DNA from: Armatimonadota bacterium
GTDB taxonomy: Bacteria; Armatimonadota; HRBIN16
Length of the DNA stretch: 64,000 nt
NCBI GenBank assembly: GCA_049969495.1
Contig: JBMFOT010000006.1
Span: forward strand, 3,108-67,107
Direction of reading: 5' to 3'
Shown: piece by piece, positions 4,689 through 64,000 of the stretch
How the letters are laid out: the number at the start of each line of letters is the position of its first letter
Position numbering within the stretch: the first letter of the stretch is position 1
Translations under genes and position numbers: made by a program
Notes under the pieces: generated by a model
Databases searched by the model: none
Told to the model about the DNA's origin: nothing
Seen by the model: the letters and a program-made list of their open reading frames with translations, nothing else

Positions 4689-4831
4689 GCCTTGGTACCG
4701 AGACGCAGCTATGTATTACGGCGAAGTTCACACTATTATAGCTCTTTGTACCCGTTGTCTTCAAGTCAGCAGAGAAAACTTGCTGGCTCAGGATTCAATC
4801 CAATAGTGCGAGAGGGTATAATAAAGATGCC

Positions 4832-5290: not shown

Positions 5291-5297
5291 GAGCAGG

Positions 5298-6311: not shown

Positions 6312-6353
6312 TACTCACCCTCTCCCACAGGGTCAAGCAACAGCTACACAGGG

Positions 6354-8675: not shown

Positions 8676-8988
8676 TGGTAGGGTCCTGGCGCAACACCTC
8701 CTCGAACTGTGCGCGAGCTTCCTCGTACATGCCGAGCATCGCGTAGGTGAGCGCAAGGTCGTTGCGGATGACCACGTTGCGCCCGTCTATCTGCACCGCC
8801 CGTTCCAGCTCCGCCAGCGACTGTTCGAACTCCCCGATAAACCCCAGCACCAGCCCGAGTTGATGGTGCGCCTCCGCGTTGTTGGGAGCCAGCTGTACTG
8901 CCTGCCGCAACTCCGCCAGCGCTTCATCATACTGCCCGTTGATTTTATACGCGACGCCGCGCTCGATATGGGACTGTACATCCCCCAT
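8635..8988 (-). CDS. TPR-repeat protein
   Basis: 117 aa with about three TPR units (AYKINGQYDEALAELRQAVQLAPNNAEAHHQLGLVL...LALTYAMLGMYEEARAQFEEVLRQDPTNEVA). Confidence 0.75.
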   Translation of the reverse strand: MGDVQSHIERGVAYKINGQYDEALAELRQAVQLAPNNAEAHHQLGLVLGFIGEFEQSLAELERAVQIDGRNVVIRNDLALTYAMLGMYEEARAQFEEVLRQDPTNEVALKQIQFLQF

Positions 8989-29436: not shown

Positions 29437-29545
29437 GATGAAACGGATTGGCGCAGATACTATCCGTGTGCATCCGTGTACTATAAACGTTACCGAGTTG
29501 ATTGCAAACGACCCAAGAGGCTATAATATCGATACCCGTCCGATT

Positions 29546-30658: not shown

Positions 30659-30660
30659 AG

Positions 30661-31395
30661 ATGGTACCCATCCTGATGTACCATAACGTGGGCGCGAGGG
30701 AACGTCATCTCAACGTTTCTCCACAGGCTCTGGCAAGGCAATGTCGCCTGCTGCGAGCGATGGGTTTTCGTGCTATCACGCTGGGCGAACTCGCGGAGCC
30801 TCTGCAAGCACACTATCTTCCCCAACGCGCGGTGGTGTTTACCTTCGACGACGCCCTGCTCGGCGTGTATGAACATGCGTTGCCCGTGCTGCAAGCCTAC
30901 GGATGGTCTGCCACCGTGTTTGCCGTCAGCAGTCGGCTGGGGCAGGAGGCGGATTGGGCTCCACGTCACCGCCACCGCGTGATGAGCCGCGAGCAGCTTG
31001 CCGAACTGCACGCCCAGGGTTGGGAGGTAGGGGCGCATACTCTCACCCACCCCTATCTCACCCGCCTGTCCCCAGAGGAGGCTCGCCGGGAGATTGCACA
31101 ATGCAGGGAAGACCTTCAGCAGCTGGTCGGTGCGCAGGTGCTCAGCTTCTGCTACCCGTACGGCGATTTGGATGACCAGGTGGTGCAGATGGTTCGGCAG
31201 GCAGGCTACCGGGTTGCGTGCACGGTGCGCAAGGGGTTGGTACATCCGCACGATGACCCGCTTACTCTCCCCCGCGTACCGATTGCCTACAGTGACGGCG
31301 CGACAGGCTTGCTGTATCGACTGTGGCGGGCATGGAGGCGTACCCTACACTGGGAGAAATCTCCACGCAATGTGAGGGTGTTCGAGAATTGTTGA
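30661..31395 (+). CDS. Polysaccharide deacetylase (CE4/NodB family)
   Basis: ILMYHNV...VVFTFDDALLGVYEHALPVLQAYGWSATVFAV...GAHTLTHPYL shows the NodB-homology motifs. The start lies 3 nt after the GT4 stop. Confidence 0.85.
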   Translation: MVPILMYHNVGARERHLNVSPQALARQCRLLRAMGFRAITLGELAEPLQAHYLPQRAVVFTFDDALLGVYEHALPVLQAYGWSATVFAVSSRLGQEADWAPRHRHRVMSREQLAELHAQGWEVGAHTLTHPYLTRLSPEEARREIAQCREDLQQLVGAQVLSFCYPYGDLDDQVVQMVRQAGYRVACTVRKGLVHPHDDPLTLPRVPIAYSDGATGLLYRLWRAWRRTLHWEKSPRNVRVFENC

Positions 31396-31411
31396 GAAGT
31401 TGGTTGTAGCG

Positions 31412-31520
31412 CAAGGGGAGAGGCGTTCTTGCTACCCCTTGTCTTACCTCACCCCCGTCCCCTCTCCTACGAGGAGAGGGGGGCGTTCCCCCTTCCCTGC
31501 GAGGGAAGGGGGCTAGGGGG
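31412..31520. repeat. Cluster of three GC-rich REP-like hairpins (CAAGGGG..CCCCTTG; CCCTCTCCT-acg-AGGAGAGGG; CCCCCTTCCC-tgcg-AGGGAAGGGGG)
   Basis: Inverted repeats read directly downstream of the deacetylase stop. Same CCCTCTCC/GGAGAGGG family as at 7905, 35399 and 36018. Confidence 0.5.
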
Positions 31521-31572
31521 TTAGGTTATCTATCCATTCAACCACCAATTTATCGAACTCCCTCAGAGCCTA

Positions 31573-31627
31573 TTGACAAATCGTGCAGCCTGTGTTATGA
31601 TAAAGATGAACCTTAACGTTAAACGTT
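31573..31627 (+). promoter_or_regulatory. Putative promoter (TTGACA-17nt-TATGAT) and tandem AACGTT palindromes (candidate operator) upstream of the LacI-family gene
   Basis: TTGACA at 31573-31578, a 17-nt spacer, TATGAT at 31596-31601. Then TAACGTTAAACGTT at about 31614-31627, just before the start at 31647. Confidence 0.4.
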
Positions 31628-31646
31628 GAGGGATAAAGTAATCATC

Positions 31647-32645
31647 ATGCTTACGAAAAGGGCGACTATCAAAGATATAGCGGCACGGGTGGGCGTCTCT
31701 GCAACGGTAGTGTCGCAGGTGCTGCGAGGGGTACAGGGGGCGATGGTCTCCACAGCCACACGCCAGCGCATCCTGGACACTGCCCGCGAGCTGGGCTATC
31801 GTCCCAACCGACAAGCGCAGGCACTGGTGGGAGGCAAGACGTATACAGTGGCTATTTGGAAACATGGTCTGCACTCGCCCTTCCACGCCTGGGTGATACA
31901 CGAGTGTGCGCAGCAGGCGTACGCCGACGGCTATGAGGTGATTATTCGTGACTTTACCTCCGTGCGCGAGGACACTTTATGGATGCACATCAACGATGTA
32001 GACGGTATCCTGGCGCACGAGTGTCCTGCTCATGCGCGAATGCTCCTGCAACAGCATCCACACGCGCGTTTACCGATAGTCAGCATGGGCGCCTTTTACA
32101 TCACGGAATGCGACCATGTGGGTATAGACCTGTATCCGGCTGCGCGCGAGGCGGTGCAGCATCTCGTTGGCAACGGCTGTCGTCGTATCGCATACGTGGC
32201 GCATGACCCCGACCGATCTTCCGGGGAGCCGCGCTACGAGGCATACCGGTCGGTGCTGCAGGAGGCAGGCATTCCGCTAGAGTACATCGCCCTGCGTGAC
32301 GCCCCTCGCGCCGAGGCGCGTCGCCTGCTACGAGAGTACTTTCAACAGCAGGGAACGCCCGACGGCATCTTTTGCCATAACGACGATGCGGCGATAACTT
32401 GCTTACGTGCAGTGTATGACACGGGCGCTCGCGTGCCGGATGACGTTGCGCTGGTGGGATGCGACGGCATCGATGAGACACAATACACCTTTCCGGAGCT
32501 CAGCACGATTGTACAACCGATAGAGGAGATGTGCCAACAGGCATGGAGGCTGTTCAGGCAGCGACTGGAGCAGCCGGGTAGGGAAATTGAAGGGGTGATA
32601 TTGCCTGCCCGGTTCGTCGCTCGTGGCTCTTCGCTGCGTTCTTAA
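31647..32645 (+). CDS. LacI-family transcriptional regulator
   Basis: N-terminal HTH ([22 protein letters not shown]) followed by a periplasmic-binding-protein-like sugar-binding domain. Confidence 0.85.
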
Positions 32646-52137: not shown

Positions 52138-52488
52138 AGAGTCTTTGCTTTCTCGATTCCCTGCTGACCAGCAATCTACCTGCTACTGGTTTTGTGGATT
52201 GTTGCCTGCGGACCGCAGTTGTGCTACTATAAATTGTAAAGATGTGGTAGCGCTGGCACTCTGCAGGACGAACATCGTGAACGAGATAGGCATATTCGGG
52301 TGGCCGAGCAACTACATCACCATGGGCACCACGTTCGAGTATCTCTTGGATTTCTGGAAGCCGCCGAAATGAAACTCTACACCAAACATGAGTTGACACA
52401 TTTGCCTCGTGGTGAACGGCATGCGTGAAGTTCTGCCCCTGTCGTATGCAGGCAACCACCTTCTGGCAGGGGGCTACTATGTGCATGG

Positions 52489-52835
52489 GTGAACTATGAC
52501 TGCCGCAAGGTGCTTCCGATGGCGTCCACCCAGTTTCCCGCGCAGACCTTCTACGTGACCGACGTGGGCAGTCGCATTGAGTCCAACAGCAACGCTTTTG
52601 CAGGGTGGTACATCGCCCCCGGTTACGACAACGGTGCCCCCAACCGCCGCTGGCCGAAGGGACAGCGCCACCAAAACGGGCGTAACTGGATTTTCGCAGA
52701 TGGGCACGCGAAGTACCATCGCGCGATCCCGCCCTCACCAACCCCGACGGCTCGCGCAAGTCGCAGGCGCAGCTCACCTGCGATTACGAGGCGATGGGAA
52801 TCTACACCTACCCGCAGGGCAAAACCTGTAACTAG
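52489..52835 (+). pseudogene. Degraded C-terminal remnant of a third DUF1559 (H-X9-DG) prepilin-type gene (frameshifted; no N-terminal pilin leader)
   Basis: ...NAFAGWYIAPGYDNGAPNRRWPKGQRHQNGRNWIFADGHAKY matches the DUF1559 C-terminal motif. A +1 frame continues ...NPDGSRKSQAQLTCDYEAMGIYTYPQGKTCN-stop, resembling the native C-termini of the intact paralogs. No [13 protein letters not shown] leader is found upstream. Confidence 0.45.
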
Positions 52836-53784: not shown

Positions 53785-54837
53785 TTAGCGGCACCGCTGC
53801 ATCGCCCATTGCAGGTGTTCGCGCACCATCGGGTCGGTTTCGTGCTGCAGTTCGCCCTGCAATACGGGTAGCGCATGTGGGTCGTTGCTGTTGCCGATGG
53901 CGACCGCGACATTGCGCCGAAAGCCTCGCCACTTTGCGCGCTTGACGGGGCTGTTGCGGAAAGCAACACGAAACTCCTCCTCACTCAGGCGCAACAGGTC
54001 TATCAGTCTGGGCGTCAGAGTGACCTCACGCGGGGTGAAGCCGGGTTCATCGGTGGGCGCGGAACGCAGCGGGGCGTGCGGGCGAGGCTGGTTGAACGGG
54101 CATACCTCCTGACAGATGTCGCAGCCGAAAATGCGGTTGCCCATCTTTGGACGCAACTCCTCTGGGATAGAGCCGCGCAGTTCGATGGTGAGGTAGCTGA
54201 TACACCGCCTCGTGTCCAGCACGTACGGGGCGACAATCGCCCCTGTAGGACACGCCTCGATGCATCGGTTGCACTTCCCGCAACCGCCAAACGCCGGCTG
54301 GTCGTACTCCAGTTCCACGTCCAGCAGGATTTCACCCAGCAGGAAATACGAACCGCGATGGGTGTTAATCAGCATGGTGTTCTTGCCGAACCAGCCCAGC
54401 CCGGCTCGCCACGCGAGGTCGCGTTCCAGCACCGGTCCGGCGTCCACGTAAATCTTCGCCCGGCAATCAGGGCGCTGCTGACGGATAAAATCCAGCAGTT
54501 GGCGCAGCTTGCGCTCCATCACCTGGTGATAGTCGTCTCCCAGCGCATAGCGGGCGAAGATGCCCCGCGATGGATCGTCAGTAACAGGAGAAACAGCAGG
54601 GGCATAGTTCAGACCGACCACCACTGCACTCTTTGCGCCGGGCAGCACCTGCTGCGGGTCACATCGGGCGTCGGCGGTGCGGGCGAGGTAAGCCATCTCT
54701 CCCGCAAACCCTTGCTCCAGCCACTTGCGGAAGAAGAGCGCGTGAGCAGGGGTTAGCACTGGAGCAAAACCCACCAGGTCAAAACCCAGAGAAAGGGCGC
54801 AAGCGCGAATTGCTTCGGATATGGTATGCTCGGTCAT
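53785..54837 (-). CDS. queG: tRNA epoxyqueuosine(34) reductase
   Basis: Two 4Fe-4S ferredoxin motifs (CGKCNRCIEACPTGAI, CDICQEVCPFN), a cobalamin-binding region and HEAT-like C-terminal repeats, in the QueG family arrangement. Confidence 0.9.
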   Translation of the reverse strand: MTEHTISEAIRACALSLGFDLVGFAPVLTPAHALFFRKWLEQGFAGEMAYLARTADARCDPQQVLPGAKSAVVVGLNYAPAVSPVTDDPSRGIFARYALGDDYHQVMERKLRQLLDFIRQQRPDCRAKIYVDAGPVLERDLAWRAGLGWFGKNTMLINTHRGSYFLLGEILLDVELEYDQPAFGGCGKCNRCIEACPTGAIVAPYVLDTRRCISYLTIELRGSIPEELRPKMGNRIFGCDICQEVCPFNQPRPHAPLRSAPTDEPGFTPREVTLTPRLIDLLRLSEEEFRVAFRNSPVKRAKWRGFRRNVAVAIGNSNDPHALPVLQGELQHETDPMVREHLQWAMQRCR

Positions 54838-55238
54838 ACCTCGAGACCGGACTGCGCCAGCTTAGCAAGCACAAACTCCCGAACCCGCTCCGCAATCTGC
54901 AGGGCTTGCCGCGCCTCCTCTACGGAGGGCATATAAAACTCATCGCCATAACGAATAGTTACGGCATAATCAGTTAGATGATCTATGTCCAGCTCGTTTA
55001 ATCTGCGAAAATCAGCATCGATATCGGCGCATCGTTCTATAAGTGCTGCCAGGGAATGAACGCGAGGAACTTCCTTTCCGTGAAAGATGAGAAAGCTCTT
55101 CAAGTACTTCTCACAACATTGCTGCATGTGAAAGCACACTGTATCGGTTATAGGGTCGTCCCTGCTCAATTCGTTTTTGCCTGTTTGGAGGTCGTTATCT
55201 GCTTTGCGCATCCAGTTTCTCACCGTATCTGCGTTCAT
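54834..55238 (-). CDS. HEPN-domain protein (putative toxin of a HEPN/MNT pair)
   Basis: MNADTVRNWMRKADNDLQTGKNELSRDD...CFHMQQCCEKYLKSFLIFHGKEVPRVHSLAALIE shows the HEPN fold. Overlaps the queG start by 4 nt. Confidence 0.7.
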   Translation of the reverse strand: MNADTVRNWMRKADNDLQTGKNELSRDDPITDTVCFHMQQCCEKYLKSFLIFHGKEVPRVHSLAALIERCADIDADFRRLNELDIDHLTDYAVTIRYGDEFYMPSVEEARQALQIAERVREFVLAKLAQSGLEV

Positions 55239-55638
55239 ATACAGGAACCCCTTCTTTGAGAACGTAGTAGGTAAGATATCCTGTATCGCTGCGCCTGCGG
55301 CATACTGTCTCTTCTGCCTGGATGAGCACATCACAATCTATCTTCTGTTTGGCAAGGAAGCGTCGTATCAGGGAGCCCATTTGCTGGCGTTGAAGAAAGC
55401 CCACTTCCTTGTCGATAACAACATAAAAATCCCAGTCGCTATCCTTGCCTGCCCCGCCCCGTGCCCGACTGCCGAACAGGTAGATTCGCACGACGTCTAC
55501 CCCATGCTGTTGCGCGACAGAGCAAATGACGTCCACCGCCTGGCGCAGCAGCTCCTGCTCTTCGGGTTTGAACGTTTCCAGTGCGTGCACGCTGCTCACC
55601 CCCAGCTCATTATAGCACCGCGCCCGTTTCGCGCGCAA
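55195..55638 (-). CDS. Minimal nucleotidyltransferase (MNT; putative antitoxin of the HEPN/MNT pair)
   Basis: RIYLFGSRARGGAGKDSDWDFYVV gives the G[SG]-x9-13-DxD nucleotidyltransferase motif. Overlaps the HEPN gene by 44 nt. Confidence 0.7.
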   Translation of the reverse strand: MRAKRARCYNELGVSSVHALETFKPEEQELLRQAVDVICSVAQQHGVDVVRIYLFGSRARGGAGKDSDWDFYVVIDKEVGFLQRQQMGSLIRRFLAKQKIDCDVLIQAEETVCRRRSDTGYLTYYVLKEGVPVYERRYGEKLDAQSR

Positions 55639-55644
55639 TGAAAG

Positions 55645-58600
55645 CTAAGCCACCCGCCCTCTCATCTGTTCCTTGACCAGCTCCAGGTTGTGACGGGCGG
55701 CGTGGTGGTTGGGGTCAATGGCCAGCGCTTGCTGGAACGCCATCATCGCCGCCTCGTACGCGCCCATCTGGAAATAGGCGTTGCCCAATGTGAAGAACCC
55801 CTGCGCGTTGATCGGGTCACGCTGTAGCCCGGCGGTGTATGTTTCAGCAGCGGCTTCGTATGCACCCAGCTGGTACAGCACATCTCCGGCGTTGAAGAAG
55901 GCGTTGGCGTCTTCGGGGTTGAGTTCAATCGCACGGGTGAAGCAGGAGAGCGCGCCTTCGTAATCGCCCTGCGCCAGATGCACCCTGCCCAGGTTGACCC
56001 ACGCGGGCGCAAACTGCGGATGCACCACTGTCAGCTCGGTGTAATCCGCCTGCGCTTCATGCCACAGGCCCAGCTTCTCCGCGCAGGTGGCACTGTGCCA
56101 TCGCCATTCCGGGTTGTTCTGGAACGCGCTCACCAGCCTGCGCCATATCGCATAGGCATCCGCCCAGCGTCCAGCCTCTTCGTAGCGCACCGCCAGTTCG
56201 CGGGCGATTTCGGGGTTCTGAGGAGCATCCCGATGCGCCTGTTCGAGCTCTTTCAACGCAGATGCGGTTTCGCCTCTGGTGAACAGCAGCTGAGCCAGCA
56301 GATAGCGCGCTTCCGCGAAGGCAGGTTGTTCCGCCAGCGCGCGACGGCACTCTGCTTCGCTCTTCTCCAGCTGCTCTAACCCCAGATAAGCCTGAGCCAG
56401 TCCGTAGTACGCCTTGAAGCCGCTGATACTGGTATCACCACCGACGAAACGGTCGTCATCGCCTGAGGCTATCGCACGCCGGAACGCTTCCACCGACTCG
56501 GCGTACCGCCGCAGGGAAAGATAAGCGTAGCCATCGGCAAAGTGCAGCCCCGGATGGTCAATCCCCCGCCGGACGGCGCGCTCGTGCACCTGCAGTATCC
56601 GCTCGTATTGCCCCAGAGGATACAGCGCGTTCGCCAGCAACACGTAGCCGATAGCCGCGTGGTCGGCATGTGGTTCTATCCGATCCACAATCGGCTCCAG
56701 CTCGTTCACCGCCTGCTCATACTGTCCGGCGACATAGTAGGCATTGCCCAGATTGAACCGCTGGAACAGGTCGTCAGGGTTCTTTTGCACCTCCTCGCGC
56801 AACATGCGGATGGTGCGTTCGTGCTTGCGCCGGTCGGCAACAATGTCCTGCCGGTAGCCGAGGTGCCGAATGCGCACGCCTTTCAGGTAAGCTATCTCGT
56901 AGCCATTACGCTCCAGAGAGGGCACAACCTGCTCGTGAATGCGCCCCTCAAAGCGCGTGATGGGCAGGCGACGAAACAGACGGCAGGCACGGTGCACGAA
57001 AGTGCTGCTACTGTGCTGGTCGCCGACATCGTTCGCAATCTCCACCAGGTAACCGGCAAACTGCGGGTCACGAATAGCGTTACGGATGGCCTCTGCACTG
57101 CCTCTGTCCAGCCGCTCGTCGGCGTCCAGCCAAAGCACCCACTCGCCGGTTGCATGTTGCAGCGATACATTGCGGGCATCGGAGAAGTCGTCGCGCCAGG
57201 GATGATGCACCACTTTTGCGCCGTACCGTTGCGCGATTTGCACCGTGCGGTCGGTGGAGCCGGTATCCACCAGCACAATCTCGTCCACCAGCCCCTGCAC
57301 ACTTTTCAGACAATCCTCGATGAACGCCTCCTCATCTCTTGCTATCATACACAGGGAAATGGTGGGATGAGCCTTCTTCTGCGAGCGCGTTGCCACAGGC
57401 TGGCTACCAGATTGCACAGGCGGCGTTGTGGCACTGCTCTGTTGCAGTAAGCGACCTGCCCGCTGCAACTCATTCTGCAAAGCGTGTTTGCCCCGCTTCA
57501 GGGAACGCTTTTGCAATTTCGTGTACAGCCCGCGCAGCAGTTCTATCGCCTCCTCGCATTCAGGGTTCAGCTCCACCGCGCGGATGGCATGACGGAGCGC
57601 TTCCTGCGAGCGACCGGTTTGCAGAAGAATATACGCCAGGTGGTAGTGCAACTCAAAATCCTCACCAATCTGTATCCCCTGCCGCAGTGCACCCTCTGCC
57701 CGGGCGATACTGCCCGCCTGAAAGTAAGCCACGCCCAGCCCACAATACGCCTTGAGCTGTTGTGGCTGCTCACGGACCAGCCTTTCCAGAAGAACAATCG
57801 CTTCATCGTAGTTTTCCTGAGCCACATAGTCGGCGGCGCGGTAGATGATGGGTTCGGCATCTTCTGCTGGGGATTTCCCGCTCGCACGAGACAATCTGCC
57901 TGCCGCCACCTGCGCAGCGTGATCCCAGGTGAGGTTCTCGCGTACCCATCGGGCAGCGCGTTCGGCGACTGCTTTCGCGCCTTCGTAGTCGTGGTATACT
58001 CGCTCCATCAGCGCTTCCATCTCGTTGCGCTCCGGCTTCGCCCAGAACGGACGGCTCACCGTCTCCATATCACCAATCAGGTTATCCGGGAAGTACTCCA
58101 CACCTGCCGGGATGAGGAATGCTCGCTCTTCGTTGCAGAAGTCCATCGCCGCGCCAAAGCCGGTGACAATAACTGGCAGACCACACGCCATCGCTTCCGC
58201 AATGGGCAAGCCGAAGCCCTCACCGCGATAGGGGTGCACCAGCACGTGGCAGGCGCGATAGAGCGCGTTCATCTGCTGCTCGTCCAGCTCGTCGGCGATG
58301 TAGATGATTTCGGGTACGTCCGGCTGCTTCTGGAACCAGCGGATTTGCTCCACAAAGTTCTGCCCGCGATAGAAGGTGTTCATCCCGAAGTCTTTAATCA
58401 CCAGCGCCACGTCATCGGAACGGGTGAAGGTGCGCGTGTAGCCGTCCAGCAAAATGTCAATGCCCTTGCGGGGTATTGTGCCCCCCACGAACAGGAAGCG
58501 GAACCGTTTCTGTGTGGGCAGTTCCATCGGTGGAACGGGCTCGAAAAAGCTCTCGGAAACGCCGTTGGGAACCACTATCACCTTTTCCGCCTGCACGCCA

Positions 58601-59004
58601 TCGCGCACATAGCACTCCCTCACGAAGGTGGAAGGGACCCACAGCTCGTCCACGTTACGGTTGATAGCATCTACCCACTCTACGGGAATGGAGCCGAACT
58701 CCCAAGGCTGAATCACGATGAATCGCTCTGCGTTTGGACGTTGCCAGTTGGGCGGCCAGTGGTGGCGTATCCACACGTCGATATGCCGAGGCAAACGGCG
58801 CATCCTCTCCTCGATGAACTTCCAGCGCGGGTCACCGTGCAGCGCGCCGTCATCGGTGGGATGCGGTACCAGATAGAATTGCCACTCCGGCATCAGTCGA
58901 TGTAGCGCGGTAACCAGTTCCCTGTTCACCAGCGCAAGGCTATGCCTCGCCAGAAAAGCCCCTTCCCAGACGATATGAAGTTGCGCATCGCCTGCGGTTT
59001 TCAT
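55645..59004 (-). CDS. Giant multidomain glycosyltransferase (~1119 aa): GT4-like domain, TPR, GT2 domain, long C-terminal TPR array
   Basis: GT4/GT1 region (...HVLVHPYRGEGFGLPIAEAMACGLPVIVTGFG). GT2 region (ISLCMIARDEEAFIEDCLKSVQGLVDEIVLVDTGSTDRTVQIAQRYGAKVVHHPWRDDFSDARNVSLQHATGEWVLWLDADERL). More than 10 TPR units at the C-terminus. Start refined to the ATG at 59004, with GGGAGGA SD. Confidence 0.8.
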   Translation of the reverse strand: MKTAGDAQLHIVWEGAFLARHSLALVNRELVTALHRLMPEWQFYLVPHPTDDGALHGDPRWKFIEERMRRLPRHIDVWIRHHWPPNWQRPNAERFIVIQPWEFGSIPVEWVDAINRNVDELWVPSTFVRECYVRDGVQAEKVIVVPNGVSESFFEPVPPMELPTQKRFRFLFVGGTIPRKGIDILLDGYTRTFTRSDDVALVIKDFGMNTFYRGQNFVEQIRWFQKQPDVPEIIYIADELDEQQMNALYRACHVLVHPYRGEGFGLPIAEAMACGLPVIVTGFGAAMDFCNEERAFLIPAGVEYFPDNLIGDMETVSRPFWAKPERNEMEALMERVYHDYEGAKAVAERAARWVRENLTWDHAAQVAAGRLSRASGKSPAEDAEPIIYRAADYVAQENYDEAIVLLERLVREQPQQLKAYCGLGVAYFQAGSIARAEGALRQGIQIGEDFELHYHLAYILLQTGRSQEALRHAIRAVELNPECEEAIELLRGLYTKLQKRSLKRGKHALQNELQRAGRLLQQSSATTPPVQSGSQPVATRSQKKAHPTISLCMIARDEEAFIEDCLKSVQGLVDEIVLVDTGSTDRTVQIAQRYGAKVVHHPWRDDFSDARNVSLQHATGEWVLWLDADERLDRGSAEAIRNAIRDPQFAGYLVEIANDVGDQHSSSTFVHRACRLFRRLPITRFEGRIHEQVVPSLERNGYEIAYLKGVRIRHLGYRQDIVADRRKHERTIRMLREEVQKNPDDLFQRFNLGNAYYVAGQYEQAVNELEPIVDRIEPHADHAAIGYVLLANALYPLGQYERILQVHERAVRRGIDHPGLHFADGYAYLSLRRYAESVEAFRRAIASGDDDRFVGGDTSISGFKAYYGLAQAYLGLEQLEKSEAECRRALAEQPAFAEARYLLAQLLFTRGETASALKELEQAHRDAPQNPEIARELAVRYEEAGRWADAYAIWRRLVSAFQNNPEWRWHSATCAEKLGLWHEAQADYTELTVVHPQFAPAWVNLGRVHLAQGDYEGALSCFTRAIELNPEDANAFFNAGDVLYQLGAYEAAAETYTAGLQRDPINAQGFFTLGNAYFQMGAYEAAMMAFQQALAIDPNHHAARHNLELVKEQMRGRVA

Positions 59005-59026
59005 CTGTTTGTCCTCCCTGTACCGT

Positions 59027-62000
59027 TCACGCCGCCTTCTCGCGTAAACGCTCGCATTGCGTCCCGTACCTTGTTTGCAGCACGCTATCGAAGCGGCTAC
59101 CGCCCAGTACCACCCGTCCAAAGAAGTTCTCAGGTAGACAGTCGGTAATCTCGATGTCCGCACAGTGTTCGGGGTCATAGCCCAACGATACCACGTACTG
59201 CGCCAGCAACTCGTACGCCTCTTGCGCGTTAAAAGCGTTGTGCACGCCCGCGTAGAGCCGAAGCAGTGCACCATCACCCGGCTGGTGCTCACGAAGATAC
59301 TCGCAAACTATCGGTTGCCATGTCTGCGGTTCGTTCCAGTCTGGCAGAGACAGGATGGTGCCCTGTTCCTGGAGCACTTGCTCATACGCCTCTGCGGTTG
59401 CCCTCGCTGTCTCCGACCACGTGTAGTGCTTCAGGATATACTCACGGAACGCCTCGCGCTTTGCCGGGTCGCGCTCTTCCCATGCCTGCAGCACCGCCTC
59501 GCGCACCGAATCCACATCGGCGGGGTTGCAGTAGTAGGCGAAATCCCCAAAGTATTCCCGCTCCGCCCCTTGATTGCCCACCACGACGGCACAACCGGCG
59601 AGCGCGGCTTCCATGCTCGTTAAGCCGGGCGTCTCCGCCCACGAAGGCATGGCGTGCACTCGCGCCGCCGCATATGCACTGGCTAGCAGTTCGGGCGAGA
59701 GCTCGCCCACAAAATGCACATTTTCGCCTGCCCACTGCCGGCACAGCGCACCGTATTCCGGCTCGGAGACCTTGCCTGCCAGCACCAGAGGGATACCCGT
59801 GTCGCGCATCGCCCATATCAGCATCAGCTGGTTCTTAAACGGCTCAATGCGCGCCGCGCACAGCACAAAATCGCGCAAGCCAAAACGCCGGGCAAAGGCA
59901 TCGGGCGTTGCCTGAACAAACCGCTCCGGGCGCACCGCGTTGGGCACTACCTGCGCCGGCTTGTAGCCCAGGCGGAAATACCTGCGCAATGCGGCGAGCT
60001 CCCACCGGCAGTTGGGCAAAAGTATCTGCGCTCGGCGCACAACACGCTCCTTAACGCGCTTCATCTCCCCCGGTTCATCCAGCGATTGAGGGTCTACGCC
60101 TTGCACCCGCAGCCGCCCCTCTTTCCACGCTCGCAACGCCTCCTCTACCTGTGCGGTCGTCTGTTGTCGGAAGACCGCCGCGCCTACCGTTACCGGATAG
60201 AAGGCTGTGTTATCGCGGAAGATAGTGGAGACGACCAGCGGTTTGTCGGTGCGCTCTAAGTGTTCTACTTTATCCGCATGGTACAGGCTGAAGGCGTGGA
60301 TCAGGTCGTAAGGCTCTTCGGGCAGGCGCAGGGATACCGACACATCTGCCACCACCCCTTGTTCCCTAAGCGCCAGCAGCGTCTCGAAAAGCTGTGTTTC
60401 GCCGCCGCCCAGCATCTCTAAGGCACGTTGGTGGGTGGTCATGAGTACCCGATGACGCACCGGCTCGACTCGCTGCCCCTTCCAGCCGAAAGCGAAAAGC
60501 CATGAGCAGTCGTTTTCAGGGTCTATCAGGTGCGCTGTTGCGCCAAAGGTTTGCTCTACCTCCGTACGCCAGTGCTGGGGGTTCTGCGGGAACACCGGCA
60601 CACCGATGAAGAAGCTGCCCCCATCACGCAGCCTGTGCACCGCATCCTGCCACCCTTCGCCAAACACAATCAGCGCGTCTGCCTGCTCGTGTTCCGACGC
60701 TTCGTTCCAGCCCTCGCCCGGCGGTTCACCATCTGCTACCCTGAGAATCACCACCCTCCCCCCGGGCTCTCGCTGGAGCCTTTGCCATAGCCTGCGCCAC
60801 CACGAAGGCGGGACAGGTGCTGTTGTTTCGCCTCCTGAAAAAGCAAGCACATGGGACAACTTCTTCTGAACTACCTGAACCCTGCCTGCCGCTGCATCCG
60901 CCGCGAAGCGCAAAAACTCTTCCGCGCTGGCGGGCAACAGGTCATCTCCTGCCCATCCCTCACACAGGCGCAATTCGGCATAGCGAATCTGGTCGGCGAG
61001 CGCGCTCATCGCGGCACAGGCGGAGAGCAAAAAGCCGTGCGCACCGTCCCGATAGCCCTGCGTCTCGTCGTAGTAGAAGCGAAACGCATAGCCCATTGCT
61101 GCGGCAAGCGTCTGCCACGAGCAGGGAGCGCGTTCTTCCAGCATCTGCTGCGCTGCGCTCTGGGAGTAGTGGTTGAGCTTGCGCATATAATGCTCCAGAG
61201 TGGGCATCGAGTGGTGCTCGATAGCACAGTCGGGATTATCGGGCGGGAAGAGAACGATTTTGCCAAATACCTTTACCCCCTCATGCGCCGCACCCAACCA
61301 TTCAAACCTGCCTCTGCGCAATAGCATCGGCGCTTTGTATCCGGGATACCACTGCCCCGCATAGCGTATCCATTTGCCCAGAAAGTAGTTCTTGTAGGTC
61401 AGCTTGACCGCCGCCACCTCGTTGTCCAGCTCGGGCAGCATCTGCCTTAGTGCATCTACCAGCGCATCGGGCACACGTTCATCGGCATCCACGTATAGAA
61501 CCCACTCATAGCGCGCGTGCTGGGCGCTGGCGTTGCGTGCCAGGTCAAAGTCGAGAATCAGCGGGTGGTGATATACCTTGTCCGTGTAGCGGCGGGCGAT
61601 TTCCACCGTGCGGTCGGTGCTCTCCATATCCATCACAATGATCTCGCCCGCCCAATCCTTCACCCGCTCCAGGCACTCGGCGATGTTGCGCTCCTCGTTG
61701 CGCGTGTGCACGATAACGCTGACCGGCAACCGTCCCTGTGCAAGAGCCTCTTCAGGCGAAGAGGTTTCCCAAACCGTTGGTGGTGGCAGTACTATCGCCC
61801 GCGCGTTTCCAGCATATTCACGGCATACGGCAACGTAGATTTCTTGTCCATCGTTGGTCTCCTCAACGATATCGAACTCCATCGCCGTGTGCGGCAGCTG
61901 ACGCGAGCGCACCTGTCCGAAAAGCTGCACACGGTGAAACCGGCTCTCCAGCAGTCGGCGAAACTCCTCCAACGTCATCAGCGAGACATGGTAGGGGTCG

Positions 62001-62827
62001 GGGTAGTGGATGTACACGTGTTTGTTCGGCGTGGAGAGGATGACCATACCGTCCGGCTTGAGCACGCGGGCGATCTCGGCAAAGAAAGCCTCCATTTGCC
62101 CCACAGGCACGTGCTCAATCACCTCAAAGCTCACCACTGCGTCGAAAGAACCCCCCTCAAAAGGCAACCCCTGCCTGTCGCTGATCGGCGCGATACGCAC
62201 GCGCTGAATCCTCTCATCTGGATAGGTCTGCTCGCCGTAGCGCAGGGGGAAACCGTCCACATCCGCTGCAACAACCTGCGCTGCCCGCCGGGCAAGTATC
62301 TTCGCGCCGTAGCCCGTTCCGCAGCCCAGGTCCAGCACGCGCATCTCCTGTACCCGCTCGCTGGCAAAGAGGTAACGTTTTGCGCTGTGGATATACAGCT
62401 CGTTCCAGGCGAAGCCTGGTGCCACCCTGTTTTCTCCTCCGCCATCCAGTCGGGGCACATCCTCCGGTACCGGAAAGTCGGCGTTGAGAATCATTCCGTG
62501 TGCGGCTTCCGGGTTTGCGTACACCGCCTGCAGTGCGTTGATCAGGGCATGGGTGACCAGCTTCTGCCACGTTCCATCAATATGTTGAAATGGCGTGGGG
62601 AAGTTCAGGTGGAGTTCCCCATCATGTACATCGAGAGCGATAAACTGCCACACCATGCGACGCCTGAGGTGGCGATGATAGAGAAATACATCCGCCGTAT
62701 ACAGCGACTGCCGGTCACGCTCCAGGCGTATCCGTTGCACAACGGCGCCATCAGCACCAGCAGAGGTAAACGCTTCAACATCTCGCGCTGTGTACGGGAT
62801 GAAACCATCCCATTGAGTGATGGGCAT
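59027..62827 (-). CDS. Giant multidomain protein (~1266 aa): class I SAM methyltransferase, GT2 glycosyltransferase, unknown middle region, C-terminal GT4 glycosyltransferase
   Basis: MTase motif I (VLDLGCGTGYGAKILARRAAQVVAADVD). GT2 (VSVIVHTRNEERNIAECLERVKDWAGEIIVMDMESTDRTVEIARRYTDKVYHHPLILDFDLARNASAQHARYEWVLYVDADERV). GT4 (FGLRDFVLCAARIEPFKNQ...HAMPSWAETPGLTSMEAALAGCAVVVG). Ends 22 nt upstream of the next giant GT gene. Confidence 0.8.
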   Translation of the reverse strand: MPITQWDGFIPYTARDVEAFTSAGADGAVVQRIRLERDRQSLYTADVFLYHRHLRRRMVWQFIALDVHDGELHLNFPTPFQHIDGTWQKLVTHALINALQAVYANPEAAHGMILNADFPVPEDVPRLDGGGENRVAPGFAWNELYIHSAKRYLFASERVQEMRVLDLGCGTGYGAKILARRAAQVVAADVDGFPLRYGEQTYPDERIQRVRIAPISDRQGLPFEGGSFDAVVSFEVIEHVPVGQMEAFFAEIARVLKPDGMVILSTPNKHVYIHYPDPYHVSLMTLEEFRRLLESRFHRVQLFGQVRSRQLPHTAMEFDIVEETNDGQEIYVAVCREYAGNARAIVLPPPTVWETSSPEEALAQGRLPVSVIVHTRNEERNIAECLERVKDWAGEIIVMDMESTDRTVEIARRYTDKVYHHPLILDFDLARNASAQHARYEWVLYVDADERVPDALVDALRQMLPELDNEVAAVKLTYKNYFLGKWIRYAGQWYPGYKAPMLLRRGRFEWLGAAHEGVKVFGKIVLFPPDNPDCAIEHHSMPTLEHYMRKLNHYSQSAAQQMLEERAPCSWQTLAAAMGYAFRFYYDETQGYRDGAHGFLLSACAAMSALADQIRYAELRLCEGWAGDDLLPASAEEFLRFAADAAAGRVQVVQKKLSHVLAFSGGETTAPVPPSWWRRLWQRLQREPGGRVVILRVADGEPPGEGWNEASEHEQADALIVFGEGWQDAVHRLRDGGSFFIGVPVFPQNPQHWRTEVEQTFGATAHLIDPENDCSWLFAFGWKGQRVEPVRHRVLMTTHQRALEMLGGGETQLFETLLALREQGVVADVSVSLRLPEEPYDLIHAFSLYHADKVEHLERTDKPLVVSTIFRDNTAFYPVTVGAAVFRQQTTAQVEEALRAWKEGRLRVQGVDPQSLDEPGEMKRVKERVVRRAQILLPNCRWELAALRRYFRLGYKPAQVVPNAVRPERFVQATPDAFARRFGLRDFVLCAARIEPFKNQLMLIWAMRDTGIPLVLAGKVSEPEYGALCRQWAGENVHFVGELSPELLASAYAAARVHAMPSWAETPGLTSMEAALAGCAVVVGNQGAEREYFGDFAYYCNPADVDSVREAVLQAWEERDPAKREAFREYILKHYTWSETARATAEAYEQVLQEQGTILSLPDWNEPQTWQPIVCEYLREHQPGDGALLRLYAGVHNAFNAQEAYELLAQYVVSLGYDPEHCADIEITDCLPENFFGRVVLGGSRFDSVLQTRYGTQCERLREKAA

Positions 62828-62881: not shown

Positions 62882-63133
62882 CTAAGCAGCGGTACGTGCA
62901 GAGGTACTATCGCGGTAACTCTGCGCCAGCACTCGCCGCGCCCCGGCGATGCTGTACATCTCTTGCTTGAGTAGCCGTTTAATCTCCAGAATCAGCGTCA
63001 CGTCATCTGCCGAGTAACGGCGTTGCTTGCCGCCGGTGCGCCTGGGTTTGAGAAACTCGCTGAACTCTTTCTCCCAGTAGCGCAGAGTGTGCACTTCTAC
63101 TCCGGTGAGCGCGCTGACCGCGCCTATCGACAT
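62882..63133 (-). CDS. MerR-family transcriptional regulator (HTH only, short)
   Basis: MSIGAVSALTGVEVHTLRYWEKEFSEFLKPRRTGGKQRRYSADDVTLILEIKRLLK shows the MerR HTH signature. Start refined to 63133. Confidence 0.8.
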   Translation of the reverse strand: MSIGAVSALTGVEVHTLRYWEKEFSEFLKPRRTGGKQRRYSADDVTLILEIKRLLKQEMYSIAGARRVLAQSYRDSTSARTAA

Positions 63134-63338
63134 TGACCCTCCGTTGTACAATGGCGACCGTCGCATCGTTCTCCTCCATGAGAATGATGTTCCCCCGCAA
63201 TCCTGCGAGGTGTTTCCACCCAGATTATCGGCATGTCCCCTTGCAATCTGTAGTGCTCTGTGAGGTTTTGACGAAACCCGCAGGGTCATGATATACTGTG
63301 AGGGCAAACCTGCTCATCGTTACAGGAGGGAATGCAGC

Positions 63339-64000
63339 GTGCGCAAAATCGCGGTATTTCTGGGTCTCTGGTCTCTACTGAGCACACTGTCTCTGGCACA
63401 AACCGGGCAACCCACGCAACCGCCTGTCTCAACTACCTTACCGTCTTCCAGCGGTCAGGCGGGAAATCAAGAGGTAACCCCTGCCTCAACGAACAACACC
63501 GCTCCGACAATGTCGTCGGAAGGGCGTCCCAGGCAAACGGCGCCGCTAGAAAAGTTCGGCTACAGCTACTTTAAGCAAGCACGGCAAGCCATTGACCTGC
63601 GAAGGCTCTATTTCCAGATGTTGTTGCAGGGTACCTTGCAAGCTAGTCCGCCACCTATCCCGCGTCCTGAGCGGACCGCTTTATCAGAACAGCAAAAAGT
63701 CGCAGATCAAACCGAGGTGCAGGAGGCAACCGAAAGCACCTCCGCAAAGGGTTCTACATCACAAGCCACCGCTGCTGGACAAGCAGGCACGACCAATCCG
63801 GGCAGCGTGCTTCCACAAACCCACACGGGCACTCGTGAAGGCAGAAACAGCGTGTCTACGCAAACTCGCATGGACACACCGGTTACGCCTGCAGAGACGC
63901 AAAGCCCGATACTGCCAGGAGACGTGCCGCAGCGCAGCATCTTTGGGCAGCAGATTCCGGGTTTACCCCAACTCAATATACCATATCAGCCGCAACTGGC
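63339..64000 (+). CDS. Secreted protein, possibly polysaccharide-export (Wza-like) N-terminal region (partial; continues beyond window)
   Basis: GTG start with GGAGGG SD 9 nt upstream. Signal peptide VRKIAVFLGLWSLLSTLSLAQ. A Ser/Thr/Pro/Gln-rich linker, then ...FGYSYFKQ...SIFGQQIPGLP, reminiscent of Poly_export N-termini. Open to the window end. Confidence 0.4.
   Translation, partial: MRKIAVFLGLWSLLSTLSLAQTGQPTQPPVSTTLPSSSGQAGNQEVTPASTNNTAPTMSSEGRPRQTAPLEKFGYSYFKQARQAIDLRRLYFQMLLQGTLQASPPPIPRPERTALSEQQKVADQTEVQEATESTSAKGSTSQATAAGQAGTTNPGSVLPQTHTGTREGRNSVSTQTRMDTPVTPAETQSPILPGDVPQRSIFGQQIPGLPQLNIPYQPQL

Follow-up and report, generated by a model that had tools for sequence, protein, structure and literature searches.

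A candidate flagellin O-glycosylation module encoded by two giant multidomain glycosyltransferase genes in HRBIN16-class Armatimonadota

Introduction

In Listeria monocytogenes flagellin is O-GlcNAcylated by GmaR (PDB 22ao), a soluble, cytoplasmic protein in which an N-terminal GT2 domain is directly followed by TPRs for which recognition of flagellin has been proposed (PMC9638930). A single GlcNAc is added, and the protein also carries an anti-repressor domain. In the type B system of Clostridium difficile (CDR20291_0241 and 0242), encoded adjacent to fliC, an initiating GT2-family enzyme, termed GT1, adds GlcNAc, and an extending enzyme, termed GT2 and composed of PF00535 and a methyltransferase domain (PF08241), adds and methylates two rhamnoses (PMC5207246). 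TPR arms for protein capture are fused to glycosyltransferases in FlmG of Caulobacter, whose TPR domain binds flagellins (PMC7591256), as well as in eukaryotic OGT and SPINDLY (SPY); in these proteins the TPRs are located N-terminally to a GT-B domain (GT41 in OGT and SPY). SunS and ThuS (PDB 7msn, 7msp, and 7msk) consist of a GT-A and a helical-repeat domain and modify small Cys-containing peptides encoded in bacteriocin clusters. Finally, WsaE, which participates in S-layer glycan formation in Geobacillus stearothermophilus (PMC2943079), and ORF6 of the Klebsiella O7 cluster (PMC11231755) are soluble proteins in which an O-methyltransferase at the N-terminus precedes two glycosyltransferase modules; they act on lipid-linked glycans and are encoded together with wzm/wzt and an initiating transferase.

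Here we describe two neighbouring genes, A and B, from a hot-spring Armatimonadota bacterium of the class HRBIN16, which probably encode a highly fused variant of flagellin glycosylation, a type of system already known in simpler form.

Results

Organization of the locus

The window, i.e., the whole stretch of 64 kb that was analysed, contains gene A (59027-62827, minus strand; 1266 aa, ATG start, TGA stop) and gene B (55645-59004, minus strand; 1119 aa, ATG at 59004, preceded by a GGGAGGA ribosome-binding site). Both are intact, and 22 nt separate the TGA of A from the ATG of B, so that an ORF check bears out the adjacent giant reading frames of the initial annotation in coordinates and strand. 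Splitting of a single gene by a sequencing error, which had been considered at that stage, does not account for them, as A and B are separate ORFs in 8 of 8 related loci with a visible junction. The flanking genes proposed earlier are also present: 54 nt upstream of A and on the same strand, a MerR-family HTH regulator of 94 aa is encoded (62882-63166, minus strand; Pfam MerR_1, 73.6 bits), and the N-terminus of a divergently oriented Wza-like protein (Poly_export/SLBB; from about 63339, plus strand) is found at the window edge. Sequence scans detect transmembrane segments neither in A, with a maximum Kyte-Doolittle 19-residue score of 1.23, nor in B, and signal sequences are absent from both; A and B are therefore most likely soluble, cytoplasmic enzymes.

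Domain architecture of A

The Pfam search confirms the GT4 and GT2 domains claimed for each protein as well as the methyltransferase of A, where the matches span residues 153-295 (methyltransferase), 370-491 (Glycos_transf_2), and 986-1131 (Glycos_transf_1). A begins with an N-terminal domain (residues 1-140; 62408-62827, minus strand) which is conserved in every homologue carrying the methyltransferase; its fold has no assignment, and residues 1-150 give no Pfam match even at E = 10. It is followed by a class I SAM-dependent methyltransferase (residues 141-345; 61793-62407, minus strand; Methyltransf_11 at E 1e-20, Methyltransf_25), which matches solved methyltransferase structures in the PDB and, with an intact glycine-rich motif VLDLGCGTGYG, is predicted from its sequence to be active. 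The GT2 domain with GT-A fold (residues 362-625; 60953-61744, minus strand; Glycos_transf_2 at E 1e-17) has an invariant D447-A-D449 among homologues and GmaR as its best PDB match (7e-15), and it ends in a helical C-terminal extension of its own that is free of TPRs.

Residues 640-790 (60458-60910, minus strand) adopt a degenerate class I methyltransferase fold that has lost the glycine-rich SAM-binding loop. The AlphaFold model of this pseudo-methyltransferase has a pLDDT of 78 (core above 90), the top Foldseek hits in the PDB are all SAM methyltransferases (E about 3e-4, TM 0.35-0.48), and comparison with A's own methyltransferase by hhalign gives an E of 3e-4 at a probability of 38%. In a clade of 53% identity a GRGNG motif is retained at the equivalent position. 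The subsequent GT4 domain of GT-B fold (residues 791-1155; 59363-60457, minus strand; Glycos_transf_1 at E 1e-14) matches PimA, PimB, and MshA in the PDB, in a register that places its N-terminal Rossmann half from about residue 790. What had been described as a central region of about 300 aa without motif is thus not one domain but the GT2 extension to about residue 625, the pseudo-methyltransferase, and the N-terminal half of the GT4; it remains correct that residues 626-800 have no Pfam match.

The tail of about 110 aa (residues 1156-1266; 59030-59362, minus strand), with the motif PDW...TWQP, is an un-annotated module, and residues 1151-1266 have no Pfam match. A search of 1.84 billion representatives with its profile yields 130 proteins at E <= 1e-3; those sampled are multidomain glycosyltransferases with the module recurring at their C-terminus, and they include a Glyco_trans_1_2-TPR protein of about 735 aa, of a type encoded beside B in other Armatimonadota. 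The tail weakly resembles the beginning of a GT-B C-terminal domain.

Domain architecture of B

B consists of a GT4, three TPRs, a GT2, and about 11 further TPRs (Pfam spans: GT4 141-365, TPRs about 390-480, Glycos_transf_2 550-658, TPRs about 720-1110), and the AlphaFold model of the full-length protein has a mean pLDDT of 90.6. Its GT4 of GT-B fold (residues 1-375; 57880-59004, minus strand; Glycos_transf_1, Glyco_trans_1_4) is modelled as two Rossmann halves. A TPR block with two long helices follows (residues 383-525; 57430-57858, minus strand; Pfam TPR and ANAPC3), in which the model shows three TPRs at 383-479, and a disordered 18-residue linker (527-544) connects it to the GT2. At the C-terminus, a TPR superhelix (residues 727-1118; 55651-56826, minus strand; Pfam TPR_1 and TPR_2 at E about 1e-45) is modelled with 22 helices, i.e., about 11 TPR-like hairpins, in agreement with the more than 10 repeats counted earlier. 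By fold this arm fits the TPR domains of OGT and SPINDLY in Foldseek searches, and it is predicted to bind the acceptor protein; in B, unlike in FlmG, OGT, and SPY, the TPRs are C-terminal to a GT-A domain.

The GT2 of B (GT-A fold, residues 545-720; 56845-57372, minus strand) is of the GmaR/SunS type and predicted to be a protein-modifying module. The alignment of residues 545-740 to GmaR covers its entire catalytic domain (E 1e-31 to 3e-29, the GT2 itself at 3e-29), about half of the first 80 aligned residues being identical by eye, and the alignment with SunS has an E of 5e-19. Across 71 homologues D627-A-D629 and H690-E691 do not vary. SunS and ThuS are the best structural matches to this domain among solved GT2 enzymes (Foldseek: SunS 7msp, rmsd 3.3 Å over 281 columns; ThuS 7msk also matched), and the superposition of the model takes in the helical repeat after the GT-A. 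The GT2-TPR half thus resembles GmaR in order and, B likewise being soluble and cytoplasmic, in location; B differs from it by an additional N-terminal GT4 and 3-TPR block, by a much longer canonical TPR superhelix, and by the absence of the anti-repressor domain.

The two GT2 domains are paralogous, as had been claimed (43.6% identity over 117 aa, E 7e-23; hhalign probability 99.9%, E 1e-37), but the string DTGSTDRTV given as shared is exact only in B and reads DMESTDRTV in A. Catalytic residues whose loss might have refuted the assignments are in place, i.e., the DxD at D447-A-D449 in A and D627-A-D629 in B, and the EX7E of both GT4s at E1065-E1073 in A and E262-E270 in B.

Conservation and module fusions

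About 35 full-length homologues of A were found, all in Armatimonadota metagenome-assembled genomes, and the full-length B family is widespread in the phylum, with a member 40% identical in Chthonomonas calidirosea. The KatS3mg022 genome (class HRBIN16) has genes 86% and 90% identical to A and B, respectively. The order MerR-A-B is kept throughout the close clade, and the MerR protein is 90-100% identical across HRBIN16-like loci and 61-63% identical to the MerR proteins whose genes immediately precede B orthologues in HR15 (L023) and in L027, where B itself is 38-39% identical. Not every B has A as its partner: adjacency of the two is confined to loci in which A has 68% identity or more, and elsewhere B is paired with other methyltransferase and GT4 genes, consistently so in the distant Armatimonadota loci L024-L026 and L028.

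In the A-like proteins P0038, P0040, and P0041 a B-type GT4 is fused at the C-terminus, in P0038 and P0040 together with TPRs, and P0038 is 39% identical to residues 6-487 of B. In P0052 an A-type methyltransferase-GT2 is combined with B-type GT4, GT2, and TPR modules, and a giant protein encoded between fliW and fliD in locus L021 contains an A-type GT2, in a module 56% identical to residues 366-672 of A, and B-type GT4 modules. Because these fusions join both module types, A-type modules belong to the system of B. The comparison supports B as the functional partner of A in a linked set of two GT2, two GT4, and one methyltransferase, suited to make a methylated hetero-oligosaccharide as initially suggested.

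Linkage of B orthologues to flagellar genes

Flagellar filament genes, counted as Pfam-confirmed flagellin/FlgL, FliD, FliS, FliW, FlgK, FlaF, or FlbT, occur within 10 kb in 34 of 75 loci encoding B-like GT4+GT2 proteins, compared with a chance expectation roughly estimated at a few percent. Full-length B orthologues of 39-41% identity immediately precede flagellin in three loci, and fliD and fliS come next as far as the sequence extends. The gene order is GT4, B orthologue (41% identity, same Pfam architecture), flagellin, and FliD in L029; GT2-GT4, a 292-aa protein, a TylF O-methyltransferase, Glyco_trans_1_2-TPR, B orthologue, flagellin, FliD, and FliS in L109; and B orthologue and flagellin in L110. 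These loci lack an A orthologue and are related to A only by GT2 paralogy. Linkage to flagellin is seen only for B orthologues of 32-51% identity; flagellar genes are absent from the present window, and the HRBIN16-like and HR15-like loci are all free of them up to 10 kb from A-B. All Armatimonadota genomes in the study describing KatS3mg022 are reported to encode pilus, flagellum, and chemotaxis genes (PMC9671151).

Discussion

We regard it as moderately probable that MerR-A-B constitutes a cytoplasmic flagellin O-glycosylation module with glycan extension and O-methylation in flagellated thermophilic Armatimonadota of the class HRBIN16. Since the window carries no flagellar gene, we infer flagellin as the acceptor in this lineage from the linkage of B orthologues in other genomes. 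The idea that the TPR array indicates a protein acceptor is strengthened by the homology of the GT2-TPR half of B to GmaR, SunS, and ThuS in sequence and fold. The GT2 subfamily also holds sugar-acceptor enzymes such as LgtF and WaaE, and therefore homology to GmaR and SunS is no proof of a protein acceptor. The division of labour would resemble that of C. difficile type B, and A shares two Pfam domains (PF00535 and PF08241) with the extending enzyme; A is far larger, with the pseudo-methyltransferase, GT4, N-terminal, and tail domains added, and A-B is not adjacent to fliC in this window.

Alternatively, A and B might polymerise and terminate a cell-envelope polysaccharide that is assembled on a lipid carrier on the inner side of the membrane, as with WsaE, WbdA/WbdD, or Klebsiella O7 ORF6, the TPRs being multi-enzyme scaffolds, with an O-methyl cap and export possibly via the Wza-like channel. 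Its methyltransferase followed by two glycosyltransferase modules does make A similar to WsaE and O7 ORF6, and TPR-like bundles are present in some terminators (PMC11231755). However, OPS terminators carry a coiled-coil ruler, which A and B lack: stretches free of Pro and Gly reach at most 42 aa in A and 28 aa in B, and helices in the B model do not exceed about 20 residues. Neither wzm/wzt nor an initiating phosphoglycosyltransferase, flippase, ligase, or oligosaccharyltransferase was found near A or B in Pfam-inspected loci. The Poly_export/SLBB gene is divergently adjacent throughout the close clade, but its synteny stops there, and the genes for sugar-nucleotide biosynthesis that L026 has within and next to the operon are equally expected in flagellin glycosylation islands. 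It is flagellar filament genes that show the strong association, and we consider the polysaccharide function unlikely.

The GmaR/SunS-like module would equally suit another protein acceptor, i.e., a DUF1559/prepilin-like, SLH-domain outer-membrane, or other secreted protein, and the window, where A-B is not beside flagellar genes, holds two intact DUF1559-type genes and one remnant as well as two SLH-domain proteins. The S-layer or pilin-like acceptors of the initial annotation are nevertheless not favoured by comparison: 5 of 10 inspected loci have a DUF1559 gene at a distance of up to 10 kb, close to the 60% or so expected from the density of such genes (3 per 64 kb here), neighbour clustering of the 75 loci reveals no recurrent non-flagellar candidate, and the comparative signal is flagellin instead. 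Glycosylation of pilins and S-layer proteins normally takes place outside the cytoplasm and is carried out by oligosaccharyltransferases of the membrane, and A and B are soluble and without signal sequences, so a non-flagellin acceptor seems quite unlikely. Still far less probable is that B is a glycocin glycosyltransferase attaching sugars to S or O of a small ribosomal peptide, as its resemblance to SunS and ThuS and the name "SunS" given to the HR15 orthologue by one source could suggest. B scores 79 bits against an NCBIfam SunS equivalog cut-off of 350, none of the loci has a gene for a precursor peptide, a peptidase-ABC exporter, or a thiol-disulfide protein, and the B family is phylum-wide and found with flagellar genes, whereas bacteriocin clusters are sporadic.

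For flagellin glycosylation, we infer the initiating module, the nature of the sugars, and the parts played by the degenerate domains and MerR as follows. The C-terminal half of B, i.e., its inverting GT2 with the TPR superhelix of about 11 repeats, would bind unexported flagellin and place the first sugar on Ser/Thr. Whereas GmaR adds a single GlcNAc, this half of B has three more glycosyltransferase modules and a methyltransferase attached or next to it: the retaining GT4 of B and the GT2 and GT4 of A might lengthen the first sugar into a short hetero-oligosaccharide, with up to four linkage types possible, and the SAM methyltransferase of A would O-methylate a sugar. The pseudo-methyltransferase and tail of A may serve as non-catalytic scaffolding, glycan-binding, or docking elements, and transcription of the A-B unit is probably under the control of the small MerR-type protein, whose conservation is unusually high.

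Gene organization of the MerR-A-B unit

A gap of 22 nt separates the gene for A (59027-62827, minus strand; ATG start, 1266 aa) from the downstream gene for B (55645-59004, minus strand; 1119 aa), whose ATG at 59004 is preceded by GGGAGGA. On the same strand and 54 nt upstream of A, a MerR-family gene (62882-63166; 94 aa) has its own AGGAG-type ribosome-binding site. A promoter/terminator scan, which gave overall the same counts as in shuffled sequence and is informative on the two gaps only, found no terminator-like hairpin in the A-B gap or in the MerR-A gap. That A and B are two genes, as initially proposed, holds: in the related loci L001 and L006-L012 they are likewise distinct ORFs a short distance apart, which rules out a gene split by a sequencing error. 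Signal peptides and transmembrane segments are absent from both proteins, and their top 19-residue Kyte-Doolittle windows (1.23 and 1.6) fall within Rossmann folds.

The MerR-type protein consists only of the helix-turn-helix and is devoid of an effector-binding domain. Within the clade it is 90-100% identical and thus better conserved than the enzymes A and B encoded downstream of it. It is also 61-63% identical to the product of the merR gene that immediately precedes B in bacterium HR15 (L023) and in L027, despite an identity of only 38-39% for B in these two loci.

Domain architecture of A and B

Pfam and NCBIfam searches bear out the domain outline of the initial annotation. In A, a methyltransferase (residues 153-295), whose VLDLGCGTGYG motif is intact, is followed by a GT2 domain (370-491) and by the C-terminal half of a GT4 domain (986-1131). 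B comprises a GT4 domain (141-365), a first set of TPRs (~390-480), a GT2 domain (550-658), and a second set of TPRs (~720-1110). The expected catalytic signatures are present in both proteins and are invariant, DxD 447-449 and EX7E 1065-1073 of A in an alignment of 29 homologues, and DxD 627-629 and EX7E 262-270 of B in an alignment of 71. In the GT2 domains, D447-A-D449 and H515 of A, as well as D627-A-D629 and H690-E691 of B, are invariant, the latter being aligned with ‘DADE’ and ‘HEQ’ of GmaR, the flagellin O-GlcNAc transferase of Listeria. Sequence comparison identifies the two GT2 domains as true paralogues (43.6% identity over 117 aa; hhalign probability 99.9%), as had been claimed at the outset, and the GT4 domains of A and B display only a distant kinship (E 5e-14). 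A match to the model PF20706 (‘GT4 in conflict systems’) has the same score as those to generic GT4 models, and a role in defence was therefore set aside.

The structural model of B (mean pLDDT 90.6) consists of a GT-B fold (1-375), three TPRs plus two longer helices (383-525), a disordered linker (527-544), a GT-A fold (549-720), and, from residue 727 to the C-terminus, 22 helices that form about 11 TPR-like hairpins.

No Pfam matches were obtained for residues 1-150 (N-domain), 626-800, and 1151-1266 (tail) of A. The centre of A, about 300 aa, had been described as devoid of recognizable motifs, and this description does not hold; nor is it a single novel domain, as it resolves into an extension of the GT2 domain, a domain with a methyltransferase fold at 640-790, and the N-terminal half of the GT4 domain. 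The GT2 domain reaches to about residue 625, and this stretch is conserved with the pattern W[YW]PGYKAP, which was used for a genome scan. According to the register of PimA and MshA alignments, the N-terminal Rossmann half of the GT4 domain starts at about residue 790. Between them, residues 640-790 are predicted by AlphaFold to form an α/β domain with a core pLDDT >90. Its top 50 Foldseek matches in the PDB are nearly all class I SAM methyltransferases, although the matches are weak (E ~3e-4, TM 0.35-0.48), and a profile comparison with A’s own methyltransferase (hhalign) gives E 3e-4. The Gly-rich SAM-binding motif I (GxGxG) is missing in this domain, where the window sequence reads VVILRVADGEPPGEG, which is why it is classified as a pseudo-enzyme. 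Only in a clade of 53% identity does the sequence ‘IGRGNG’ partly preserve the SAM loop. From fold and profile similarity, we read residues 640-790 as a putative pseudo-methyltransferase.

A profile of the A tail matches 130 proteins at E <= 1e-3 among 1.84 billion representative proteins, and the matches sampled are multidomain glycosyltransferases according to Pfam. Many of them are about 730-750 aa long, with the match near residues 610-690, and the one of this length that was checked (P0265) has a Glyco_trans_1_2+TPR architecture like the gene beside B in other Armatimonadota. By its profile matches, the tail is a recurrent C-terminal module. Its interpretation as a clear GT4 relic is not upheld: an hhalign probability of 95% is an artefact, because the A1-derived alignment includes three fusion proteins in which a real B-type GT4 occupies these columns, and the clean alignment A4 gives E 0.014 and a probability of 3%. 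Since overlapping HMM matches between tail and GT4 remain only in P0261 and P0270, a truncated GT4/GT-B relic is kept as a weak suggestion. Also, the second half of A is not an orthologue of the ~735-aa Glyco_trans_1_2-TPR partner in Chthonomonas, for which BLAST gave nothing significant; the tail motif alone is common to them.

Similarity of B to protein glycosyltransferases

Flagellin glycosylation is well studied in pathogens. Among solved structures, GmaR is the nearest relative of B’s GT2 (E values of 1e-31 to 3e-29 across the whole catalytic domain), followed by the glycocin glycosyltransferases SunS (5e-19) and ThuS. The model of B superposes on SunS and ThuS in a Foldseek alignment that covers the GT-A fold plus the repeats, and its C-terminal arm superposes on the TPR superhelix of OGT and SPINDLY. 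B shares with GmaR and SunS the presence of TPR or other helical repeats immediately C-terminal to GT-A. In contrast, the GT2 domain of A matches GmaR (E 7e-15) over the N-terminal half of the domain only and is followed by a different extension instead of such repeats. By sequence and predicted fold, the GT2-TPR part of B is a candidate protein or peptide glycosyltransferase of the GmaR/SunS type. GmaR adds GlcNAc, and its TPRs are proposed to bind flagellin (PMC9638930). Similarly, FlmG requires its TPR domain to bind flagellin, and this domain alone suffices for binding (PMC7591256). In the type B modification of Clostridium difficile, GT1 adds GlcNAc, and two rhamnoses are attached and methylated by GT2, which combines PF00535 with the methyltransferase domain PF08241 (PMC5207246). 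Methyltransferases are also common in the flagellin glycosylation islands of Geobacillus (PMC5109656).

Distribution and module shuffling

The closest relatives of A and B are encoded in metagenome-assembled genomes of Armatimonadota, ‘Bacterium HR16’ (A 91%, B 94% identity) and KatS3mg022 (GCA_026003175.1; A 86%, B 90%), the latter being assigned to class HRBIN16 (PMC9671151). The A family is small, with about 35 full-length members, all from Armatimonadota. The B family is large (at least 120 full-length clusters, 36-93% identity) and includes proteins of the cultured Chthonomonas calidirosea (40%) and of bacterium HR15. In C. calidirosea T49, the B orthologue belongs to a GT4 / GT1_2-TPR / B operon. 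The order A-B is kept wherever A is at least 68% identical (L001, L006-L013), and MerR is likewise placed upstream in L001, L006, L008-L012, and L014. In the 53%-identity clade, A stands alone with no B adjacent. In other Armatimonadota (L005, L024, L025, L026, L028), B closes an operon in which it is preceded by a methyltransferase(s)-GT4 or GT4 protein and a Glyco_trans_1_2-TPR protein that may carry the tail. A is not orthologous to the methyltransferase-GT4 partner in L025, with which it shares only generic methyltransferase similarity.

The modules of A and B recur in other combinations. In P0038, P0040, and P0041, residues 1-1150 of A are fused to a B-type GT4, and in P0038 and P0040 also to TPRs; P0038 is 39% identical to residues 6-487 of B. 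In P0052, an A-type methyltransferase-GT2 is fused to B-type GT4, GT4, GT2, and TPR modules. HR15-like genomes (L016-L019) have a separate gene that corresponds to A’s second half, with pseudo-methyltransferase, GT4, and tail. This shuffling, as judged from the proteins’ architectures, ties A and B into what would be one system.

Several variants were encountered in the related loci. P0029, P0034, and P0035 (~1540 aa; locus L004, 10001-14623) are A variants with an extra TylF/Methyltransf_24 domain between the first methyltransferase and GT2. In L026, a Gfo/Idh/MocA oxidoreductase, a hexapeptide acetyltransferase, and a DegT aminotransferase (a WbpB/D/E-like set) are inserted in the B operon (4665-7664) and dTDP-sugar genes lie downstream of it; the inserted genes hint at a di-N-acetylated amino sugar in the glycan of that organism. 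The last gene in L002 (20856-23861) and L003, near a 53%-identity A homologue, encodes a SufB split by an intein with LAGLIDADG homing-endonuclease domains and is unrelated to A-B.

Linkage of B to flagellar genes

Metagenome contigs were scanned with the B alignment, yielding 80 loci in which ORFs were called and all neighbours clustered. The top recurrent neighbour families, confirmed by Pfam, were flagellin/FlgL, FliD, FliW, FlgK, FliS, FlaF, and FlbT. At least one flagellar filament gene was located within 10 kb in 34 of 75 B-like loci, a count for which the loci were not de-replicated, compared with a few percent expected by chance on a rough estimate. Among loci with a near-full-length B match outside the close clade, filament genes were found in 9 of 26. 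L029 encodes, in this order, a GT4, a B orthologue that is complete, 41% identical, and alike in Pfam architecture, a flagellin with Flagellin_N and Flagellin_C, and FliD. When this flagellin was used as a query and two of the resulting flagellins were traced on their contigs, both were located directly downstream of a B orthologue, in L110 and in L109, which encodes GT2-GT4, a 292-aa protein, a TylF O-methyltransferase, Glyco_trans_1_2-TPR, the B orthologue, flagellin, FliD, and FliS. The TylF methyltransferase is free-standing in this flagellin-linked island. In L021 (NC10), a giant protein with an A-type GT2 (56% identity to residues 366-672 of A) and B-type GT4 modules is encoded between fliW and fliD, adjoined by more B-type GT2 and TPR genes. 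A first hint of a link to flagella came from L024 (640-4221 and 21560-22111), where, in a 6.1-Mb genome, the B operon is situated between cheX, cheY, cheR, cheD, cheC and flgM. Gene neighbourhood thus provides the decisive lead toward flagellin as the probable acceptor.

Flagellar genes were found neither in the 64-kb window nor within 10 kb of A-B in HRBIN16- or HR15-like loci, and an A orthologue was found in none of the loci where B directly adjoins flagellin (L029, L109, L110). For the acceptor in HRBIN16, we therefore infer from flagellin-linked B orthologues of 32-51% identity and from the published statement that all Armatimonadota genomes of the Katase hot-spring study, class HRBIN16 with KatS3mg022 included, encode flagellum and pilus genes (PMC9671151). 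Chemotaxis genes were reported there for all Armatimonadota clades except f__ATM1 (PMC9671151).

Proposed function of A and B and alternative explanations

From gene neighbourhood and by analogy to GmaR, A and B most likely participate in the O-glycosylation of flagellin with a methylated oligosaccharide. The GT2-TPR part of B would capture cytoplasmic flagellin and attach the first O-linked sugar, which would be lengthened by the GT4 of B and by the GT2 and GT4 of A. The methyltransferase of A would then O-methylate a sugar, its pseudo-methyltransferase and tail may serve as scaffolds or docking elements, and MerR might regulate the MerR-A-B unit. The initial annotation had proposed protein O-glycosylation with a methylated oligosaccharide, which agrees with this proposal in kind; its choice of S-layer or pilin-like proteins as the target is probably wrong, given the flagellar linkage. 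DUF1559 genes occur near the loci at about the frequency expected from their abundance, so that their co-occurrence with A-B is at chance level, and neighbour clustering yielded no other recurrent candidate for a non-flagellar acceptor.

The main alternative is that A and B act in the manner of WsaE or Klebsiella O7 ORF6, as polymerase-terminator of a polysaccharide (PMC2943079; PMC11231755). Like WbdD, WbbB, ORF6-O7, and WsaE, A joins a methyltransferase to GT2 and GT4 domains, and a Wza-like gene neighbours MerR-A-B. However, the extended coiled coil expected as a molecular ruler for enzymes of this type is not seen in A and B: the longest Pro/Gly-free segments span 42 aa in A and 28 aa in B, and no long helix is present in the B model. 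Furthermore, no wzm/wzt, initiating phosphoglycosyltransferase, or flippase was encountered in any locus inspected; for wzm/wzt and the initiating transferase, this covers the Pfam-annotated neighbours and a reading of the window’s ORFs. The synteny of the Wza-like gene ends at the close clade and is uninformative, because within this clade the downstream queG is also syntenic; the gene was rejected as a member of the system. A role of B as a glycocin glycosyltransferase, at which its similarity to SunS might hint, is disfavoured, as the gene context is unlike and the scores of B (79.3 bits) and A (47.4 bits) with the SunS equivalog model TIGR04195 are below its cut-off of 350 bits, so that neither protein is a SunS equivalog.

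If flagellin is the acceptor, MerR-A-B is probably a highly fused variant of flagellin glycosylation in an under-studied phylum, with two un-annotated domains and a conserved mini-MerR; our literature searches found no report of flagellin glycosylation in Armatimonadota. A more far-reaching reading, to which we give only a small chance, is a cytoplasmic assembly line free of lipid carriers, in which the B family works with variable partners, here A. The TPR arm would hold flagellin while four GT modules and one methyltransferase assemble a methyl-capped oligosaccharide directly on it, the pseudo-methyltransferase and a truncated GT-B-like tail would be re-used for docking or glycan reading, and the mini-MerR would couple glycosylation to flagellar expression, for which GmaR-MogR coupling in Listeria offers a loose parallel.

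Flagellin glycosylation would provide a testable function for the B family (~1100-1250 aa, conserved across Armatimonadota), whose present annotation is just “TPR protein” or “glycosyltransferase”. It would also represent an extreme module fusion in protein glycosylation, with four GT domains and one methyltransferase across two polypeptides and, in some relatives, in one. The pseudo-methyltransferase and the recurrent tail could be defined as new families, and thermostable, soluble enzymes of this kind might serve protein glyco-engineering. MerR-A-B falls within the known categories of biology.

Other features of the window

Directly downstream of B, a HEPN-domain gene (54834-55334, minus strand) and a minimal nucleotidyltransferase gene (55195-55638, minus strand) resemble a toxin-antitoxin pair of the HEPN/MNT kind. 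The two ORFs overlap if each is taken from its earliest potential start codon, so that HEPN translation probably begins further downstream. The pair is situated elsewhere on the contig in HR16 (L007) and is absent at this position in KatS3mg022 (L001), which makes a mobile insertion between B and queG probable. Of a DUF1559/prepilin-like gene, only a remnant is present at 52483-52832 (plus strand), either a pseudogene or an assembly error: it corresponds to no more than residues 174-289 of its orthologue in L001, which has 289 aa, and its frame changes near 52720-52806. The Wza-like (Poly_export/SLBB) protein of about 1000 aa, whose N-terminus is encoded at 63339-64000 (plus strand) divergently from MerR-A-B and in synteny in the close clade only, has a signal peptide followed by a long low-complexity segment rich in Thr, Ser, Pro, and Gln.

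Two tandem paralogues of about 650 aa (17480-19456 and 19593-21521, minus strand) each possess, besides a signal peptide and an SLH domain at the N-terminus, a segment resembling a coiled coil and a long β-barrel-like C-terminal region, and they resemble the porins that tether the outer membrane to peptidoglycan in deep-branching diderms. A polytopic membrane protein of 800 aa (6354-8756, minus strand), for which Pfam gave no match at E <= 1e-3, may be a glycosyltransferase of the GT-C/YfhO kind. Elsewhere in the window (29438-32645, plus strand), genes for a canonical GT4 of 406 aa, a 244-aa polysaccharide deacetylase, and a regulator of the LacI type make up a small carbohydrate cluster of their own.
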